Shown one piece after another: positions 7,386 through 62,741 of a stretch of 64,000 nucleotides of DNA (position 1 is its first letter; every line of letters begins with the position of its first letter). This DNA comes from Gammaproteobacteria bacterium (GTDB taxonomy: Bacteria; Pseudomonadota; Gammaproteobacteria; UBA4575), in assembly GCA_965242685.1 (NCBI GenBank), contig OZ251487.1, positions 865,199 to 929,198 on the forward strand. Direction: 5' to 3'. Under the pieces are notes generated by a model, which did no database searches, was not told the DNA's origin, and saw only the letters and a program-made list of their open reading frames with translations. Made by a program: the position numbers and the translations under genes.

Positions 7386-8306
7386 TCATTTTTCAAATCG
7401 TATCACTTTTATGTTACTCCCCACTACTATCCTCATCAGATCTTCCCCCATGTAAAGCTCTCCTTCATAGTTGTTCTTTAGTTCCTCAAGCAAGGTGTCC
7501 TCGCGGACGCCAATTAGAATGATATGCGTGAGGACTGCGACTCGAGGCTTGGCTTTATGCAGTACGCGTAGCATCTGCGATGAATCGGTATGATAGCGTT
7601 TTACTTTTTGTAATCGAGGGTTTCTTGCCAGGATGTTGGGTTCGGCAGCAAAGATCTCATGGATCAATACGTCAACGTCGCGGGCGTGTTCGATCAACTC
7701 GTTTGAGTACGTGGTATCGCCGGATATGACTACCGAACGGTCGCCAAAGTCAATTCTGTATCCGTAGGCAGGTTTTACCGGTTCATGCTCAACGTGGAAC
7801 GCCGTTACTTTAACGCCGCGTGCCGAATAAACCACACCGGACACAATATCGTCGGCAATCAGCTTGGCTGCATCCTTACTCAGTCCCGTGTTCTGATGCC
7901 TGATTGAGATATCGTAGGCGTAGGCTTGTTGCAGTTTTTGCACAAAATCCCGTGTGCCTTCCGGGCCGTAAACTCGTAGTGGCTGTTGACGTTGATACAA
8001 CCGGCTGGTAAGCCATACATCATCCAATGCCGAAATATGGTCGGCATGCAAATGGGTGATAAAGACTTTGTTGATTTCGGACAAGGGGATATCCAGCTGA
8101 TGCAATCTCTGAACAATTCCCCGGCCCGCATCAAATATCAGAAACTCCCCTCCCGCTTCAACGAGTACGGCAGGGCCGGAACGATGCACGTCGGGCCTTG
8201 GGCTACCCGTGCCAAGCAAGGTAACGCGCATGTAGTCGGCATAGGCGATGACGGGATAAAGAAACAACCAACAAAATATAAGTGAGCGTCCCGACACGGT
8301 TTTCAT
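7386..8306 (-). CDS. MBL-fold metallo-hydrolase with signal peptide
   Basis: HxHxDH motif (ITHLHADHISAL). N-terminal signal sequence. Confidence 0.7.
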   Translation of the reverse strand: MKTVSGRSLIFCWLFLYPVIAYADYMRVTLLGTGSPRPDVHRSGPAVLVEAGGEFLIFDAGRGIVQRLHQLDIPLSEINKVFITHLHADHISALDDVWLTSRLYQRQQPLRVYGPEGTRDFVQKLQQAYAYDISIRHQNTGLSKDAAKLIADDIVSGVVYSARGVKVTAFHVEHEPVKPAYGYRIDFGDRSVVISGDTTYSNELIEHARDVDVLIHEIFAAEPNILARNPRLQKVKRYHTDSSQMLRVLHKAKPRVAVLTHIILIGVREDTLLEELKNNYEGELYMGEDLMRIVVGSNIKVIRFEK

Positions 8307-8321
8307 GGTGTTTGATGAAAG

Positions 8322-10124
8322 CTATTTGTCTACACGTAAAATAGCCAGAAATGCTTCTTGTGGAATTCCCACTTTACCGATTTTTTTCATGCGTTTTTTA
8401 CCTGCCTTCTGCTTTTCCAGCAGTTTCTTTTTGCGCGTTACATCTCCGCCATAGCACTTTGCAGTAACGTTTTTCCGCAACGCCTTGGTTGTCGTCCTGG
8501 CAATGATTTTCGATCCGACTACAGCTTGAATGGCAACATCATACATCTGTCTGGGAATAATCTCCTTCATCTTAACGGCAAGCTCTCTACCGTAAGATTG
8601 TGCCCGATCTTTGTGTACAACGACCGACAGCGCATCTACTCTTTCGCCATTGATCAGTATGTCTAGTTTAACCAAGGGTACCGCCGAAAAATGTGAAAGA
8701 TGGTAATCAAATGAAGCGTAGCCGCGACTCAGCGATTTCAGTTTGTCAAAAAAGTCCAGGACGATCTCGCTCAAAGGCAACTGAAAGATGACCAATACTT
8801 GATTGCCGTAATAGTGCAAGTTTTTTTGTGTGCCGCGCTTTTCAATACACAAGGTTATCACGCTGCCTACGTATTTATGTGGAACTAGGATTGAGGCAGA
8901 GATAATCGGCTCTCGAATTTCCTTCACCTTGTTTGCCGCCGGCAAAGCGGACGGATTATGTATGTGTTGAATTTCGCCATCCGTAGTGTGTATTTCATAA
9001 ACTACCGTTGGCGCCGTGGTTATCAACGCCAGTGCATATTCACGCTCAAGACGTTCTTGAACGATCTCCATGTGCAACATACCAAGAAACCCGCATCGAA
9101 AACCAAACCCCAGCGCGTCGGACGTTTCAGGTTCATACGTAAACGCGGAGTCATTGAGCCGAAGCTTTTCCAGTGCACTTCGAAATGCCGCGTAATCGTC
9201 CGCGTTGACTGGGAATACGCCGGCAAAAACGTTGGGGCGAACTTCTTTGAAACCTTGCAACGGCCGTTTGGCAGGCGCAACAACCGACGTGAACGTGTCC
9301 CCCACTTTTGCTGCGGAAATATCTTTTATCCCGCAAATCACGTAACCGACCTGCCCCGACTTTAGGGTTTTGGACTCGGTACGCTTAGGTGTAAATATAC
9401 CTACCTTTTCAACCTGGTAGTCTCTCCCCGAAGACATCGCCACAACTTTTCCCCCACACTTGATTTCACCCTGCACCACGCGCACCAATGATATGACCCC
9501 GACGTAACTGTCAAACCACGAGTCAATGATAAGTGCCTTGAGAACGCCGCTTGCCGAACCTTTCCGCGAACTCACAGGGGCGGGAAGTCGTTTTACTATC
9601 GCCTCCAACACATCTTCCACACCTTGTCCAGTTTTGGCGCTCACCAACAAAGGTCGGGAGGCATCGATACCGATAACATCTTCGATCTCAGCTGCAACCT
9701 TTTCTGTATCGGCGGAAGGCAGGTCGATCTTATTTAATACCGGAACGATCTCCAGGCCGAGATCGAGCGCGGTGTAGCAATTTGCGACACTTTGCGCTTC
9801 TACACCTTGAGACGCATCAACGATAAGCAGTGCCCCTTCACAGGCCGCCAAAGAACGAGAAACTTCGTAAGAGAAATCAACGTGCCCGGGGGTATCGATG
9901 AAATTAAGTTGATAGATATACCCGTCGTTTGCCCGATAACGCAGTGACACACTTTGGGCTTTTATAGTGATACCACGCTCACGTTCCAGCTCCATGGAAT
10001 CCAGCACTTGTTCGCTCATCTCACGTTCGGACAAGCCACCGCAATGCTGAATAAAACGATCCGCTAAAGTGGTCTTGCCATGATCGATGTGTGCGATGAT
10101 GGAAAAGTTTCGGATACGCTCCAT
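8322..10124 (-). CDS. lepA: elongation factor 4 (translational GTPase LepA)
   Basis: [24 protein letters not shown]1 motif, [14 protein letters not shown], about 600 aa. Confidence 0.95.
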
Positions 10125-55096: not shown

Positions 55097-56137
55097 ATGG
55101 CAACTCAGAGGCAAACCGTGAAAAGGAAGGCCGCCGTCCGAAATAAGACCGCGGCACAAAGGAAGGCCGCGACTCCAAAGAAGGCCACGGCGCAAAGGAA
55201 GACCACGACTCCAAAGAAGGCCACGGCGCAAAAGAAAGCCACGGTGCAAAGGAAGGCCACAACTCCAAAGAAGGCCACGGCACAAAGGAAGGCCGCAACG
55301 CCAAAGAAGGCCGCGACGCAAAAGAAGGCCACGGCGCAAAGGAAGACCGCAACTCCAAAGAAAGCCGTGACGCAAAAGAAGACCGCGGTGCAAAAGAAGG
55401 CCGCGACGCAAAGGAAGGCCACAACTCCAAAGAAAGCCGCGGCGCAAAGGAAGGCCACGACGCAAAGGAAGACCGCAACTCCAAGGAAGACCGCGACTCC
55501 AAAGAAGACCGCAACTCCAAAGAAAGCCACGGTGCAAAGGAAGACCGCGACTCCAAAGAAGGCCGCAACGCCAAAGAAGGCCGCGACGCAAAGGAAGGCC
55601 GCAACTCCAAAGAAGGCCGTGACGCAAAAGAAGACCACGGTGCAAAGGAAAGCCGCGACTCCAAAGAAGGCCACGACTACAAGGAAGACCGTGGCGGAAA
55701 GGAAGGCCGCAGCAGAGAAAAGGAAAAGACGTACCGGCCCGCCGAAGAAACGCTCCGATCCGGATAAGGGCTATATGAACCCGGAACAATTAGCGCATTT
55801 TCGTGATGTTTTGCTGCGCCGAAAACAAGATATATTCGATGAAGTCAGCCGAACTGTGGATCACATGAAAAAAGAGGCGAGCCAGTTTGCAGACCCCGCC
55901 GACCGCGCCACACAAGAGGAAGGATTTAGCCTGGAGCTACGTACCCGCGACCGCGAAAGTAAATTGGTGAAAAAGATCAACCAAGCCCTGGCGTCCATTA
56001 AAGCGGACGAATACGGCTACTGTAAATCTTGCGGAGTAGAAATAGGTTTAAAAAGATTGGAGGCGCGCCCTACCGCTACACTGTGCATCGACTGCAAGAC
56101 GTTACAAGAAAGGAGGGAGAATCAAGTCTATACGTAG
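55097..56137 (+). CDS. dksA: DksA/TraR-family RNA-polymerase-binding factor with a ~215-aa N-terminal Lys/Ala/Thr/Pro-rich repeat tail (histone-H1/AlgP-like)
   Basis: C-terminal 130 aa contains the DksA coiled-coil acidic tip (ADPADRATQEE) and C4 zinc finger (CKSCGVEI...CIDCK). N-terminal region is ~18 imperfect repeats of TPKKATAQRKA. Confidence 0.8.
   Translation: MATQRQTVKRKAAVRNKTAAQRKAATPKKATAQRKTTTPKKATAQKKATVQRKATTPKKATAQRKAATPKKAATQKKATAQRKTATPKKAVTQKKTAVQKKAATQRKATTPKKAAAQRKATTQRKTATPRKTATPKKTATPKKATVQRKTATPKKAATPKKAATQRKAATPKKAVTQKKTTVQRKAATPKKATTTRKTVAERKAAAEKRKRRTGPPKKRSDPDKGYMNPEQLAHFRDVLLRRKQDIFDEVSRTVDHMKKEASQFADPADRATQEEGFSLELRTRDRESKLVKKINQALASIKADEYGYCKSCGVEIGLKRLEARPTATLCIDCKTLQERRENQVYT
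55112..55720 (+). repeat. about 18 tandem copies of a 33-bp (and 15/18-bp half-unit) coding repeat
   Basis: Visible periodicity actccaaagaaggccacggcgcaaaggaagrcc repeated head-to-tail. Produces mirror-image repetitive ORFs on all minus-strand frames. Confidence 0.85.
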
Positions 56138-58899: not shown

Positions 58900-59298
58900 T
58901 TAGGGGCCTCCTTTTGAATCAAATTCTAAGGATATGGAGTTGATACAATATCTCATATTGTTTGGGGGGATGCCATCTTCAAAGACATGTCCGAGATGTG
59001 CTCCACAGGCGGCACACAGTACTTCTGTTCTTTGCATTCCATGGCTCAAGTCGATCTCGGTCGTTACACTTTCGTCTTTATACGGTTGATAAAAGCTGGG
59101 CCAACCGGTACCGGAGTCAAACTTGTGTTGTGAATGAAAGAGGGGGTTTTTGCAGCAAACGCATCTGTAAAGGCCTTTTTCTTTGTGGTTGTGGTATTTG
59201 CCGCTAAAAGGTGGCTCCGTGCCCTTCTGCCTACAGATGTAGAATTGTTCCGGCGTTAGATCTTTACGCCACTGTTGCGTTGACTTTTTGATCTCCAC
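58900..59298 (-). CDS. msrB: peptide-methionine (R)-S-oxide reductase
   Basis: Zn site CVCC/CAAC and catalytic RYCINS (GTGWPSF). GTG start. Confidence 0.9.
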
Positions 59299-59355
59299 GT
59301 TACTTGGGTGTTAGATTTTACGCCACTGTTGTGCTGATTTTTTTATTTCCACACG
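59256..59355 (-). repeat. about 45-bp tandem duplication of the msrB 5' end
   Basis: ttagatctttacgccactgttgcgttgactttttgatctccac (59256-59300) versus ttagattttacgccactgttgtgctgatttttttatttccac (59311-59355). The second copy encodes VEIKKSAQQWRKI*, a decayed copy of the msrB start [12 protein letters not shown]. Confidence 0.7.
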
Positions 59356-59362
59356 GGTGCGG

Positions 59363-60646
59363 TCAACGGCTCGATGTTTTGTAGTTCTTAATCTCGTCAA
59401 TGATGTCTTGCAACGCTGCATGGACCCATTCATGTTTATTCTCAAACCTCTCATGGATGTGGGATTCCGTTTCCCTGAACCACGGCGTTTCAAACTTGAA
59501 TTCAAGTTTGTACTGCCGGTCGGGATCGGGCGTTTGATAGGAATTCAAACGAGATTTCCAATCTTTCGCAATGCCGACTTTATATTCGCCCGGATATTTC
59601 GGATTCGAGATGACATACACAAATTTCTGCTCTTGGTAGTCCGTACCCTGATCCGTCCGTTTCGGTGGATCCGTTCTCATGTGAATCTTGTTTTGAGATT
59701 TAAGTAAATGGCTGGGGTCGGCCACTTCTTTGGTCAATCGCTGCTTAACGAGTTCATACGCCTTTATTGTTATATCAACACCGATCCATTGCCTGTTCAG
59801 TTCCTCGGCCGCAACGCACGTGGTCGCACAACCGCAAAACGGGTCAAGCACTATATCCCCCTCGTTGCTGGAGGCCTGGATGATGCGCCTTAATAAGGCC
59901 AAAGGTTTCTGGGTGGGATAGCCGGTATAATTGCGCGCCGCCGGCTGTACGCAAGGGATGCGCCAAACCGCGTCAACCTTTTTGTCCGTCACTGTGCGAT
60001 ACATAATTTTGCCGTCTGGCCCACGCTTGTTTTTCAACACACCATCAACGTTCTTCCTGACTAATTGCCTTGTTGGGTTTTCCCGTAATTCTCGTTGCGG
60101 ATTGAACTTTGTTTGATGGCTGCAAGCATAAAAAAGCAGTTGGTCGTAGTTCCGACCAAAGAGACGCTTTCCAGCCGAATACTTATTATAATAGTGCCAG
60201 ATGATTTCATTCCGAAAATTCTTCTCTCCAAAGATACAATCCATCGTGGTCTTCAGATAATGGCTCATCGTGGGGTCGCAATGCAGATAGATGCTCCCCG
60301 TTGGCTTGAGCACCCGGCGGCATTCCAAGAGGCGAATCGCCATATACGCCAAGTAGGCGAAGTTGTGGGGCTTGCCTATCCCCCGTATGCCATCGAGATA
60401 ACTAAAAAGATCGCTCTGATTTTCCTCAAGGGTCTTTAGCCACTCTTCCTTCAGATCGTCTTGCGTGAAAATATCCTTAAAACTGGCGCCTTCGGCACTG
60501 GTGCCGATGGGGGCGGTAAATTTCTTATTCTTGTTGAAGGGCGGGTCCAGATAGATTAAGTCGATACACTCCGAGTTGATCCCCTGCAAAATATCCAGGT
60601 TGTCATCACAGAAAATGGTTCGGTTTTGTACATTGCATTCCGTCAT
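59363..60646 (-). CDS. orphan beta-class N6-adenine/N4-cytosine DNA methyltransferase fused to a C-terminal T5orf172 (GIY-YIG-like) domain
   Basis: N-terminal DPPF (motif IV) and MTase N-4/N-6 fold blocks. C-terminal FVYVISNPKYPGEYKVGIAKDWKSRLNSYQTPDP...HERFENKHEW matches the T5orf172 pattern. ATG lies 4 nt after the pnp stop. No restriction endonuclease gene nearby. Confidence 0.8.
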   Translation of the reverse strand: MTECNVQNRTIFCDDNLDILQGINSECIDLIYLDPPFNKNKKFTAPIGTSAEGASFKDIFTQDDLKEEWLKTLEENQSDLFSYLDGIRGIGKPHNFAYLAYMAIRLLECRRVLKPTGSIYLHCDPTMSHYLKTTMDCIFGEKNFRNEIIWHYYNKYSAGKRLFGRNYDQLLFYACSHQTKFNPQRELRENPTRQLVRKNVDGVLKNKRGPDGKIMYRTVTDKKVDAVWRIPCVQPAARNYTGYPTQKPLALLRRIIQASSNEGDIVLDPFCGCATTCVAAEELNRQWIGVDITIKAYELVKQRLTKEVADPSHLLKSQNKIHMRTDPPKRTDQGTDYQEQKFVYVISNPKYPGEYKVGIAKDWKSRLNSYQTPDPDRQYKLEFKFETPWFRETESHIHERFENKHEWVHAALQDIIDEIKNYKTSSR

Positions 60647-60650
60647 TTAT

Positions 60651-62741
60651 TTACAAGCGGTCGCTTTCTACGGCTTTCATGCTCAATCTGATGCGCCCCT
60701 GCTTGTCAATTTCAAGCACTTTTACCGTGATGATGTCGCCTTCGGTGAGTTCGTCGCTTACATTTTCTACGCGCTCATGTGAAATTTGTGAGATATGCAC
60801 CAATCCATCCTTGCCGGGTAACACGCTGACAAAGGCGCCAAAATCCATAATTTTCACGACTTTGCCTTCGTAGGTTTTACCTACTACTACGTCTTCGGTA
60901 ATTTGTTCGATGCGGCGTTTGGCAATATCACCGGCGGCTTTATCCACCGACGCAATGCGCACAACGCCTTCATCGTCAATGTCAATGGTGGTGCCGGTCT
61001 CCTCCGTCAATGCGCGAATGGTGGCGCCTCCCTTGCCGATCACGTCGCGTATTTTGTCGGGATGGATCCTTAGCACCGTAAAGCGAGGCGCATACTCGGA
61101 CATTTCTTGACGCGGCGCGGAAATCACGGCGTTCATTTTTTCAAGTATGTGTAAACGGCCTTCGCGCGCCTGTGTAAGTGCTATTTGCATGATCTCCCGC
61201 GTAATTCCTTCAACTTTGATGTCCATTTGTAATGCGGTCACCCCTTCCTGCGTCCCGGCAACCTTGAAGTCCATATCGCCAAGATGGTCTTCATCGCCTA
61301 AAATATCGGTCAGTACAACGAAGTCATCGCCTTCTTTAATCAGACCCATAGCTATACCCGCAACCGGCGCCTTGATGGGTACTCCGGCATCCATCAAGGA
61401 TAAGCTGGTGCCACAGACGCTGGCCATGGAACTGGAGCCGTTGGACTCGGTAATCTCCGAGACTACGCGTATTACATAAGGGAATTCATCTTCAGTGGGG
61501 ACCACGGCGCGAATCCCTCGTTTTGCGAGCTTTCCGTGACCCACTTCACGACGCTTGGGTGAACCTATAAACCCGGTTTCACCTACACTGAATGGCGGAA
61601 AGTTGTAGTGCAGTATGAAGTTGTCTTTGAATTCGCCTTCTATGGCATCGATGATCTGGGCGTCTCTGCCCGTGCCCAGCGTAGTAACCACCAGTGCTTG
61701 TGTTTCGCCGCGGGTGAATAGCGCGCTGCCATGGGTGCGAGGCAAAAGACCCGTGCGAACCGTAACCGGGCGAACCATGTTTTTATCTCGTCCGTCTATA
61801 CGCTTTTCACCGGATAAAACCCGCTCACGCACGGTTTTTTTCTCAAGCCTTTTAAGGGCGTCAAGCATATCGGCCTCACTGTGTCCTCCTTCTTCGTCTA
61901 TCAGCGACTCACACGCCTCCCTACAGATTTGGCCGACCCTTTCCTGACGCTCCAGTTTGCCCGCAATTTTATAGGCTTCCCCCAGCTCCCGACCACAAGT
62001 AGAGTCGACCTTTTCTTCCAGAGATTCGTCACGCTCGGGCGGCTGCCAATCCCATGCCGGTTTCCCCGCCTTATCCGCAAATTCCTGAATCGCGCTTATC
62101 GCCGCCTGTAGTTGTTCGTGACCAAACATCACCGCGCCAAGCATGATCTCTTCGGAAAGAACATCGGCCTCCGATTCCACCATCAAAACAACGTCCTTCG
62201 TTCCCGCAACAACGAGGTCAAGCCGGGATGTTTTAAGCAAGGAATAGCCGGGATTTAAGATATAGCCGCCGTTCTTGTAGCCAACTCGCGCCGCACCCAT
62301 CGGCCCGCTAAAAGGCATGCCGGATATCGATAAGGCGGCAGAGGCGCCGATCATCGCCGGTATGTCGGGGTCTACATCGGTATTCATGGAGATTACCGTG
62401 GCAATGACTTGGACTTCGTTGGTGAAGCTCTTGGGAAACATCGGGCGAAGGGGGCGATCAATGAGGCGAGAAGTTAAGGTCTCTTTTTCGGAAGGGCGTC
62501 CTTCTCGCTTGAAAAAACCGCCGGGTATTTTACCGGCGGCATAGGTCTTTTCCTGATAATTTACCGTAAGCGGAAAGAAATCCCGCCCCGACCCCGGGTC
62601 TTTCTGCCCAACTACAGTTACCAGCACCGTAGTGCCGCCCATATCAACCACAACCGCTCCATCCGCCTGACGCGCAACTTCTCCGGTTTCCAATGTGACT
62701 GAATGTTCTCCATACAAAAATGATTGCATTATTTTATTCAC
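60651..62741 (-). CDS. pnp: polyribonucleotide nucleotidyltransferase (PNPase)
   Basis: Two RNase PH domains, KH and S1 domains. N-terminus (M)[19 protein letters not shown] parallels E. coli. GTG start. Confidence 0.95.

Follow-up and report, generated by a model that had tools for sequence, protein, structure and literature searches.

Several described systems combine a DNA methylase with a nuclease in ways that resemble the gene studied here, a 427-residue open reading frame (ORF) joining a methylase to a T5orf172 domain, which lies between pnp and msrB in a 64,000-nucleotide (nt) stretch of a Gammaproteobacteria genome (assembly GCA_965242685.1, contig OZ251487.1, positions 865,199 to 929,198). 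This whole stretch is called the window, and other loci and proteins are referred to by L and P numbers. Type IIC/IIG restriction enzymes such as MmeI are alike in holding methylase and nuclease in one polypeptide, where one recognition module could serve both, and differ in that they combine a gamma-class N6-adenine (N6A) methylase with an N-terminal PD-(D/E)XK nuclease, whereas here a beta-class methylase precedes a C-terminal T5orf172, HNH or Mrr-type domain. Eco29kI is, as we take it, a GIY-YIG enzyme. Its engineered endonuclease-methylase fusion, in which it was joined to its own methylase, is described as functional (PMC3039593), and swapping of recognition regions between alleles is documented for Type IIG enzymes (PMC2853133). 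T5orf172 itself is a subfamily of GIY-YIG whose nuclease activity depends on a glutamate (PMC10448857), and it is listed among the nuclease domains of N6A restriction-modification systems (PMC4738411). The T5orf172 homing endonucleases of ICP1-like and T5-like phages, including the Odn nuclease, share with the window gene this domain, a modular layout, stand-alone genes near conserved genes, and domain recombination (PMC10448857); they carry zinc-finger (CapR, DUF723), RepA_N or similar DNA-binding domains and no methylase, and they are phage-borne whereas the present gene is chromosomal. The DnmA-YeeB-YeeC system of Bacillus subtilis differs in comprising three separate genes for a methylase, a helicase and a T5orf172/GIY-YIG protein, with no fusion or arrays described. 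DnmA also belongs to another methylase class. What this system shares with the window gene is the genetic coupling of a methylase to a T5orf172 nuclease, whose gene stands beside that of DnmA, and a location in defence-rich neighbourhoods (PMC9973331). Furthermore, linkage to insertion sequences (IS), insertion with long target duplication, amplification, and swapping of recognition domains were catalogued for restriction-modification genes (Furuta et al. 2010, PMC2853133), the described cases being separate endonuclease and methylase genes.

Compared with these systems, the window gene is tentatively read here, with a confidence slightly short of even, as a recently inserted, promoterless copy of a mobile, selfish, one-gene restriction-modification-like single-chain enzyme. 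Its composition had been proposed in a first-pass annotation of the same DNA as a 427-residue fusion of a beta-class N6A or N4-cytosine (N4C) methyltransferase with a DPPF motif and a C-terminal T5orf172 domain, which Pfam confirmed. N6_N4_Mtase (PF01555) matched residues 28-301 (E = 1.1e-48; 166.6 bits against a cut-off of 26.7) and T5orf172 (PF10544) matched residues 342-408 (E = 1.3e-9; 38.9 bits against 20), together with MUG113 (PF13455; E = 1.1e-6; 29.6 bits against 22.3). The PADLOC model MTase_II also matched the protein (E = 1e-65). The motif order is that of the beta class, namely motif IV, recognition region, and motif I. Conservation was evaluated on an alignment of 61 homologs with 60-93% identity, and the protein is divided as follows.

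60197..60646, minus strand: methylase N-terminal part, residues 1-150, with motif IV DPPF at 34-37; D34, P35, P36 and F37 are invariant
59927..60196, minus strand: hypervariable target-recognition region, residues ~151-240, 28-31% identical to paralogs of the same genome, with indels
59702..59926, minus strand: methylase C-terminal part, residues 241-315, with YPTQKP and the S-adenosylmethionine-binding motif I DPFCGCATT (268-276)
59627..59701, minus strand: conserved linker, residues 316-340, containing TDPPKRTD
59363..59626, minus strand: T5orf172 nuclease domain of the GIY-YIG superfamily, residues 341-427, with the stop codon included, matched by Pfam T5orf172 and MUG113

In the methylase C-terminal part, Y243, Q246, K247, P248, D268, P269, F270, G272, C273, A274, and T275 are invariant. 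The linker holds invariant R330 and D332, with T325, P327, P328, and T331 nearly so. The first-pass annotation had proposed examining whether the GIY-YIG catalytic residues are conserved, and they are: K356, G358, R366, E394, H398, E406, and W407 are invariant in the T5orf172 domain, while Y344, Y355, Y370, and N403 are kept in at least 90% of the homologs. These residues form the GIY-YIG constellation Tyr...Tyr-x-x-Gly...Arg (+4 Tyr/His)...Glu...Asn, their roles being assigned by motif order (from PMC10448857 and general knowledge). The ratio of nonsynonymous to synonymous divergence (dN/dS) is 0.12 overall, 0.06 in the methylase N-terminal part, and 0.18 in T5orf172; purifying selection acts on both modules, and both look functional from motif conservation and dN/dS. 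A full-length AF2 structure model had a mean confidence (pLDDT) of 85 and matched CcrM, M.MboIIA, M.BceJIV, M.RsrI, and an N4C methylase in Foldseek at E values of 1e-16 to 1e-13. N6A and N4C enzymes are both among the methylase matches, and the NCBIfam adenine-methylase models scored below their cut-off. The model of the T5orf172 domain (pLDDT 83) had its best Foldseek matches in Slx1, At-HIGLE, and the UPF0213 proteins BH0048 and EF2693, at E values of just 0.7-3; the latter two are presumably GIY-YIG proteins.

The insertion was delimited by comparison with a site that is empty. The features concerned are given below, where copy A denotes the functional start of msrB and copy B a decayed duplicate of it.

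60651..62741, minus strand: pnp (polynucleotide phosphorylase), with Pfam RNase_PH, PNPase, KH and S1; TAA stop at 60653-60651
60650-60647, minus strand: 4-nt spacer ATAA from the pnp stop to the cassette ATG, native because TAAATAA is also in the empty site
59353..60646, minus strand: inserted cassette, the ORF plus a 10-nt tail CCGCACCCGT, delimited by the L142 empty site and the L056 copy
59363-60646, minus strand: methylase-T5orf172 ORF of 427 residues, ATG at 60646 and TGA at 59365-59363

The empty site lies in L142, a sister strain represented by a 6-kb contig of run SRR17504027, which matches the window at 94.2% identity along 3354 nt and as far as position 60647. It reads ...CGCTTG TAA ATAA GTCAGTTGCCGAGTAACGA GTGGAAATAAAAAAATCGGAACAACAGTGGCGCAAAATCTAAC GCCCAGGTAAC GTGGAGATTAAAAA, that is, the pnp stop, ATAA, a 19-nt spacer, copy B, and copy A, with the methylase absent. 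The window reads ...TAA ATAA (ATG...TGA CCGCACCCGT) GTGGAAATAAAAAAATC..., so that ~1.29 kb (59353-60646) stands in place of the 19-nt pnp-msrB spacer GTCAGTTGCCGAGTAACGA, with cassette boundaries uncertain by ~3 nt from microhomology. The methylase is likewise absent from two more distant relatives, with pnp 91% (L137/L138) and 86% (L139/L140) identical and one msrB start each. The gene order rpsO-pnp-msrB-ferredoxin-glutathione S-transferase (GST)-ferredoxin reductase is kept in L137-L140, and their pnp-msrB gap is just 19 nt or 48-82 nt. Because the L142 spacer resembles that of the distant relatives by eye (...TTTTGAGTAAT in L137), L142 is taken as the ancestral state. The locus is hence polymorphic for presence and absence, filled in the window and empty in L142 and L137-L140. 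The methylase-T5orf172 gene is a recent insertion between pnp and msrB, as had been supposed beforehand, and the fusion is not a universal feature of the pnp 3' end in relatives. The filled and empty pair defines the insertion almost to the nucleotide. A recombination breakpoint within pnp was considered and rejected, identity to L137 running at 75-91% along the gene with no step, and a foreign base composition of the cassette was rejected as well (GC 45-52%, same as the flanks). When empty sites were sought in Joint Genome Institute metagenomes through msrB, the relatives returned were all at most 65% identical. As separate observations, two contigs of one sample with identical pnp (L139:7092-7173 and L140:7092-7140) are distinguished by an indel of 34 nt in their pnp-msrB spacer, which seems prone to rearrangement, and msrB was not called in L137 or L140, an unusual start codon being a possible cause.

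The ORF begins 4 nt past the pnp stop, and its end is 10 nt from copy B and 64 nt from the true msrB start; the zero spacer given in the first-pass annotation was therefore right as to close abutment and wrong as to zero. The sequence, read directly, shows no Shine-Dalgarno-like purine run ahead of the ORF ATG, in agreement with the earlier description. A scan for promoter-like and terminator-like sites among pnp, the ORF, and msrB returned none except one weak promoter-like match at the cassette 3' end, so the placement close behind pnp with no signals of its own was borne out as well. This match is as follows.

59337..59366, minus strand: weak sigma-70-like match TTGACC-18 nt-AAAAAT, spanning the ORF end and cassette tail (gtTGACCgcaccc) and copy B (AAAAAT)

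It is a possible candidate for a new msrB promoter, at a level not above chance, since three sigma-70-like matches were found against 5.7 expected in shuffled sequences. The pnp operon most likely drives the cassette, and expression of the window copy would probably occur by rpsO-pnp read-through and translational coupling, through termination and reinitiation over the 4-nt gap.

A second copy of the cassette shows what moves. The metagenome contig L056 encodes a protein 93% identical to the window protein in another, unrelated context. The two DNAs are 92.2% identical over 1298 nt. This homology starts with the 6 nt that precede the ATG (AAATAA) and ends 8 nt past the stop (CCGCACCC), and the flanks of the two are unrelated. 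The unit that moves is little more than the ORF, and L027 and L028 form a second such ORF-only pair. The empty site contains AAATAA too, and in either context the tail is followed by GTG, which makes a junction microhomology of 3-6 nt; at these two sites, this suggests illegitimate joining or a sequence preference and not a recombinase site. The upstream flank of L056 is not the tail of another methylase copy, as a different ORF ends there and overlaps the ATG, and the C-termini of IS1595 transposases gave no match to the L056 flank. The window locus is not an IS1595 passenger, since it has no transposase and consists of an ORF-only insert with pnp ending 4 nt upstream.

Signatures of mobility were found at other loci of the family. 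At eight loci, and as a fragment at a ninth, a protein of ~315 residues belonging to one homology cluster is encoded directly upstream of the family member, at distances between a 4-nt overlap and a few hundred nt; scanning of three such proteins identified each as an IS1595-family transposase. Five of the loci hold full fusions. Across 55 loci, the IS1595 transposase alone recurs as a neighbour, and no partner endonuclease does. In the Gammaproteobacteria metagenome-assembled genome (MAG) OZ244850.1, a 2386-bp IS1595-family element occurs 99.96% identical at two sites (L047:6994-9379 and L048:6994-9378), in which a transposase gene is accompanied by a related methylase gene that lacks T5orf172. 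The element ends in the inverted repeats GGGAATTATATACTTA and is bordered by target duplications of 8 bp, TTTGCTTT and TTTAGAAA. These features indicate that it transposed recently, taking a methylase along as passenger. In L020, a 72-nt direct repeat (71/72) comprising the whole intergenic region lies on both sides of a fusion ORF (7932-8003 and 9301-9372), between a gene for a small-molecule methyltransferase dependent on S-adenosylmethionine (SAM) and ribD. It looks like an insertion that duplicated a long target, and L019, with a 34-nt imperfect flanking repeat, like its imperfect equivalent. L012 and L021 end in truncated N-terminal fragments of a further copy. Conserved genes stand close to the copies, namely uvrA at 2 nt, tsaE at 0 nt, cbiD at 29 nt, and glnA at 146 nt, and further neighbours are ribD, COX1, and a succinate dehydrogenase/fumarate reductase flavoprotein-type gene. 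The family hence resembles the mobile restriction-modification complexes of Furuta et al. (2010) in its 34-72 nt flanking repeats without other mobility gene (L019, L020), in IS1595 adjacency and a related methylase carried by an IS1595 element (L047, L048), and in tandem amplification (L010, L014). The window copy is unlike the long-target-duplication cases in that it has no flanking duplication, replaced 19 nt, and shows the 3-6 nt microhomology. In a relative genome (ENA ERZ25068320 contig_8; L141:4001-7476), the fusion paralog P0006 of 498 residues lies 146 nt after glnA. It is convergent with a conventional two-gene pair, in which the genes for a HindIII-like endonuclease and an N6_N4 methylase are separate, so that one-gene and two-gene systems are adjacent there.

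The window gene is not a one-off but one of at least five paralogs in its genome and part of a very large mobile family. The paralogs P0002-P0005 are on the same contig, and compared with them, the window gene is 94-95% identical over residues 1-150, 28-31% with indels over 151-240, 88-93% over 241-315, and 81-91% over T5orf172. A homolog search returned at least 8000 matches, and nearly all of the top 120 share the two-domain architecture at 51-93% identity to the window protein. Copies 50-65% identical occur across many phyla. The 55 loci derive almost all from MAGs, of Arenicellales, Ca. Poriferihabitans, other Gammaproteobacteria, Alphaproteobacteria, Dehalococcoidia, Spirochaetia, Flammeovirgaceae, and Mycoplasmatales, and Cyanobacteria MAGs are also among the NCBI-named matches. 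The CAR, RHO, COS, and SB06 bins and Poriferihabitans are, as we take it from isolate names, sponge-symbiont series, and judged from such names the hosts appear to be mostly sponge symbionts. Methylase gene families were reported to be enriched in sponge symbionts (PMC4453008); literature searches turned up such general reports of enrichment and nothing that describes this family of fusions, its arrays, or how prevalent it is in sponge symbionts.

The extent of amplification is best seen in L010:1-17242 (Dehalococcoidia MAG CAXXBX010000034.1, 1144664-1161905), a head-to-tail array of 13 complete copies which extends beyond the locus, because partial copies stand at both ends. Its spacers are conserved, 14 nt long, and read aggaatgataaagc or agaaaggtatgagc. 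The copies are 76-98% identical, with ~95-99% conservation at the protein ends and a hypervariable recognition region in the middle. Six tandem fusion copies ~55 nt apart are found in L014:6683-14412 (Alphaproteobacteria MAG OZ254962.1), with two more in L016 of the same genome, and two tandem copies occur at several further loci. Altogether, 129 family proteins fell into 75 recognition-region clusters at 60% identity, and some pairs share a recognition region at 97% on scaffolds just 72% identical. When the window gene is compared with L056, the recognition region has a synonymous divergence (dS) of 0.07 and the other parts 0.33-0.52, so the genes are mosaics, in which either recognition regions move or resident paralogs homogenise the scaffolds.

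The C-terminal position of this scaffold can also be filled by other nucleases. An HNH domain replaces T5orf172 in L024:7977-9227, L025:7995-9239, L029:427-1758, and L031:8001-9251, and Mrr_cat, of the PD-(D/E)XK type, replaces it in L037:1038-2597 and L038:1893-3353. Up to residues 304-343 of the window protein, these proteins share 53-62% identity with it. With tblastn, the matches of the HNH relatives to the window protein stop at ~residues 332-343, which places the domain swap after the linker. Since three unrelated nuclease folds occupy one slot, its selected function is implied to be DNA cleavage. The first-pass annotation had offered several functions for the fusion; that of a single-chain restriction-modification enzyme is the best-supported mechanism, as HNH and Mrr-type nucleases replace T5orf172 on the same scaffold.

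In the mechanism proposed, the beta-class methyltransferase would mark the host genome, at N6-adenine or N4-cytosine, in a motif read by the hypervariable recognition region. The T5orf172 nuclease, with its intact catalytic residues and tethered by the conserved linker, would cut unmarked DNA, which may be incoming phage or plasmid DNA or, upon loss of the gene, the host chromosome. One ORF could then be a complete defence and addiction unit, and such completeness would explain movement of the ORF alone, sites in housekeeping operons, IS1595 adjacency, arrays, and recognition swaps. Several points weigh against this proposal. The characterised single-chain restriction-modification enzymes combine a gamma-class methylase with an N-terminal PD-(D/E)XK nuclease, and we know of no direct precedent for the present layout. 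A single GIY-YIG domain may only nick DNA, and the structural support for the GIY-YIG fold is weak, as seen from the Foldseek values above, while a profile search against the PDB gave no match. A host would also be heavily burdened by an operon with 13 or more restriction specificities, all of them active. HNH and GIY-YIG are moreover classic homing-endonuclease domains, so that a homing role stays compatible with the domain swap.

A wider proposal, on which we are more doubtful, is that the beta-class fusions with interchangeable T5orf172, HNH, and Mrr domains may be an uncharacterised class of one-gene restriction-modification systems. These would spread as ORF-sized units across bacterial phyla, in sponge microbiomes if the MAG names are a guide, and their arrays of 13 or more variants on a recombination-uniform scaffold would give a combinatorial "methylation barcode plus restriction" immune repertoire. 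To our knowledge, no natural example of a beta-class methylase with a GIY-YIG-type nuclease has been characterised. If active, the enzyme would be among the smallest self-sufficient restriction-modification units, with ~420 residues in one ORF, and a natural system for studying recognition-domain swaps on a fixed scaffold. The excess of methylase genes that has long been noted in sponge symbionts would also gain a concrete molecular explanation, through at least five copies of differing specificity in a genome of 1.8 Mb, arrays reaching 13 copies or more, copies in different phyla, and ORF-only insertion into housekeeping operons. The recognition-region variants on a near-identical scaffold are a possible toolbox of methylation or cleavage specificities.

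The alternative that survives best, though we consider it unlikely, is a purely selfish methylase-guided homing endonuclease. T5orf172 would cut a conserved chromosomal site, for example near pnp and msrB, in genomes lacking the gene; the methylase domain would give DNA recognition and protect the carrier, and the ORF would spread through break repair. T5orf172 proteins are indeed established homing endonucleases with modular DNA-binding domains that cluster beside essential genes (PMC10448857). The window cassette is approximately an ORF alone and is polymorphic between close strains, HNH variants exist, and copies abut pnp, uvrA, tsaE, cbiD, ribD, glnA, COX1, and the flavoprotein-type gene. 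Homing is however expected to copy a gene into the same locus, whereas closely related copies of this family occupy unrelated loci; L056, the one close copy found, lies at a different locus, which disfavours simple homing. Arrays with dozens of recognition regions and the Mrr-type variant fit restriction better, and no signal of flanking co-conversion was seen in pnp. Furthermore, no relative was detected among 2.9 million viral contigs, on which ground a phage origin of the gene was also rejected.

A somewhat less likely alternative is a solitary methylase with an epigenetic or protective role, either marking many motifs or pre-methylating DNA against the restriction of neighbours and phages, in which T5orf172 would serve for DNA binding, nicking, or repair. 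CcrM and Dam are regulatory orphan methylases of this kind, conserved at a fixed locus. The window gene is unlike them in having no fixed conserved locus: it is absent here in the closest relatives, occurs in multiple copies, and varies in its recognition region. The absence of a partner endonuclease agrees with a solitary role. No restriction endonuclease gene lies within ~5 kb of the ORF, where the neighbours are pnp and msrB and not the separate endonuclease gene of a classical Type II system, and the neighbouring genes here and in relatives thus uphold what had been noted earlier on this point. The enrichment of methylase families in sponge symbionts (PMC4453008) is in line with such a role as well, and so is a preprint mentioning T5orf172 (10.1101/2020.11.28.402263), which by its title concerns a domesticated endonuclease that tunes the expression of phage genes. 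Against it, the catalytic residues of the nuclease are invariant or nearly so and under purifying selection, and three unrelated nuclease folds at one scaffold position are hard to explain without selected DNA cleavage. A single-chain restriction-modification-like enzyme is therefore preferred to both alternatives.

The start of msrB is duplicated in tandem next to the cassette, as had been described before, with a second copy that is decayed; the duplication does not flank the gene as was then stated, since both copies are downstream of it, on one side only. The copies and msrB are as follows.

59310..59352, minus strand: copy B, decayed copy of the msrB start, encoding VEIKKSAQQWRKI followed by a stop; the same 1-nt deletion is found in L142
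59255..59298, minus strand: copy A, functional msrB start, the repeat being extended here with one 1-nt indel
58900..59298, minus strand: msrB (SelR), GTG start; Pfam SelR at E = 3.4e-53; syntenic in relatives

The core of the direct repeat (59263-59298 and 59317-59352) is 36 nt at 86% identity with a spacing of 54, the extended copies are 43-44 nt, and when the 300 nt that follow the gene downstream were shuffled for comparison, the repeat scored z = 17.9. Since both copies are already there in the empty site of L142, the duplication is older than the insertion and did not arise as its scar. That it arose as a scar of the arrival of the methylase, which was the first-pass interpretation, is highly improbable: copy B does begin 10 nt past the cassette stop codon, and insertions with long target duplication do exist in the family (L020, L019), yet the methylase-free L142 carries the whole tandem pair, in which copy B shows the identical 1-nt deletion and stop codon, and has an ancestral-type 19-nt spacer like that of more distant relatives, and in the window the copies share one side of an insert around which no target-site duplication was found (upstream-versus-downstream alignment score 7.5, equal to background). 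An origin of copy B as the remnant of a donor msrB was at first favoured, as four of the five A-B substitutions are at third codon positions (~P = 0.045), and was ruled out by L142. Copy B (window 59310-59352, L142:5958-6000) is a 13-codon ORF kept in two lineages 94% identical, ending 11-12 nt ahead of the msrB start, and of the three differences between them two are synonymous. Rather than being inert, it may serve msrB as a leader peptide or coupling ORF.

The genes around the locus are housekeeping genes by their Pfam matches in syntenic relatives, namely Ribosomal_S15/rpsO, TruB, PNPase, SelR/msrB, a small ferredoxin, GST, and ferredoxin reductase. The window pnp is 100% identical to P0121 on a 1,831,068-bp contig, which also carries the methylase. 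Elsewhere in the window, positions 55097-56137 (plus strand) encode a protein of 346 residues, the N-terminal two-thirds of which is a lysine/alanine/threonine-rich repeat (KKATAQRKAATP...) resembling histone H1, and the C-terminus resembles the DksA/TraR zinc finger. Long ORFs on the other strand or in other frames over this interval are repeat artefacts. The syntenic position is occupied by a 331-residue gene without Pfam match in L139 and L140, and by a DksA of 121 residues in L137.

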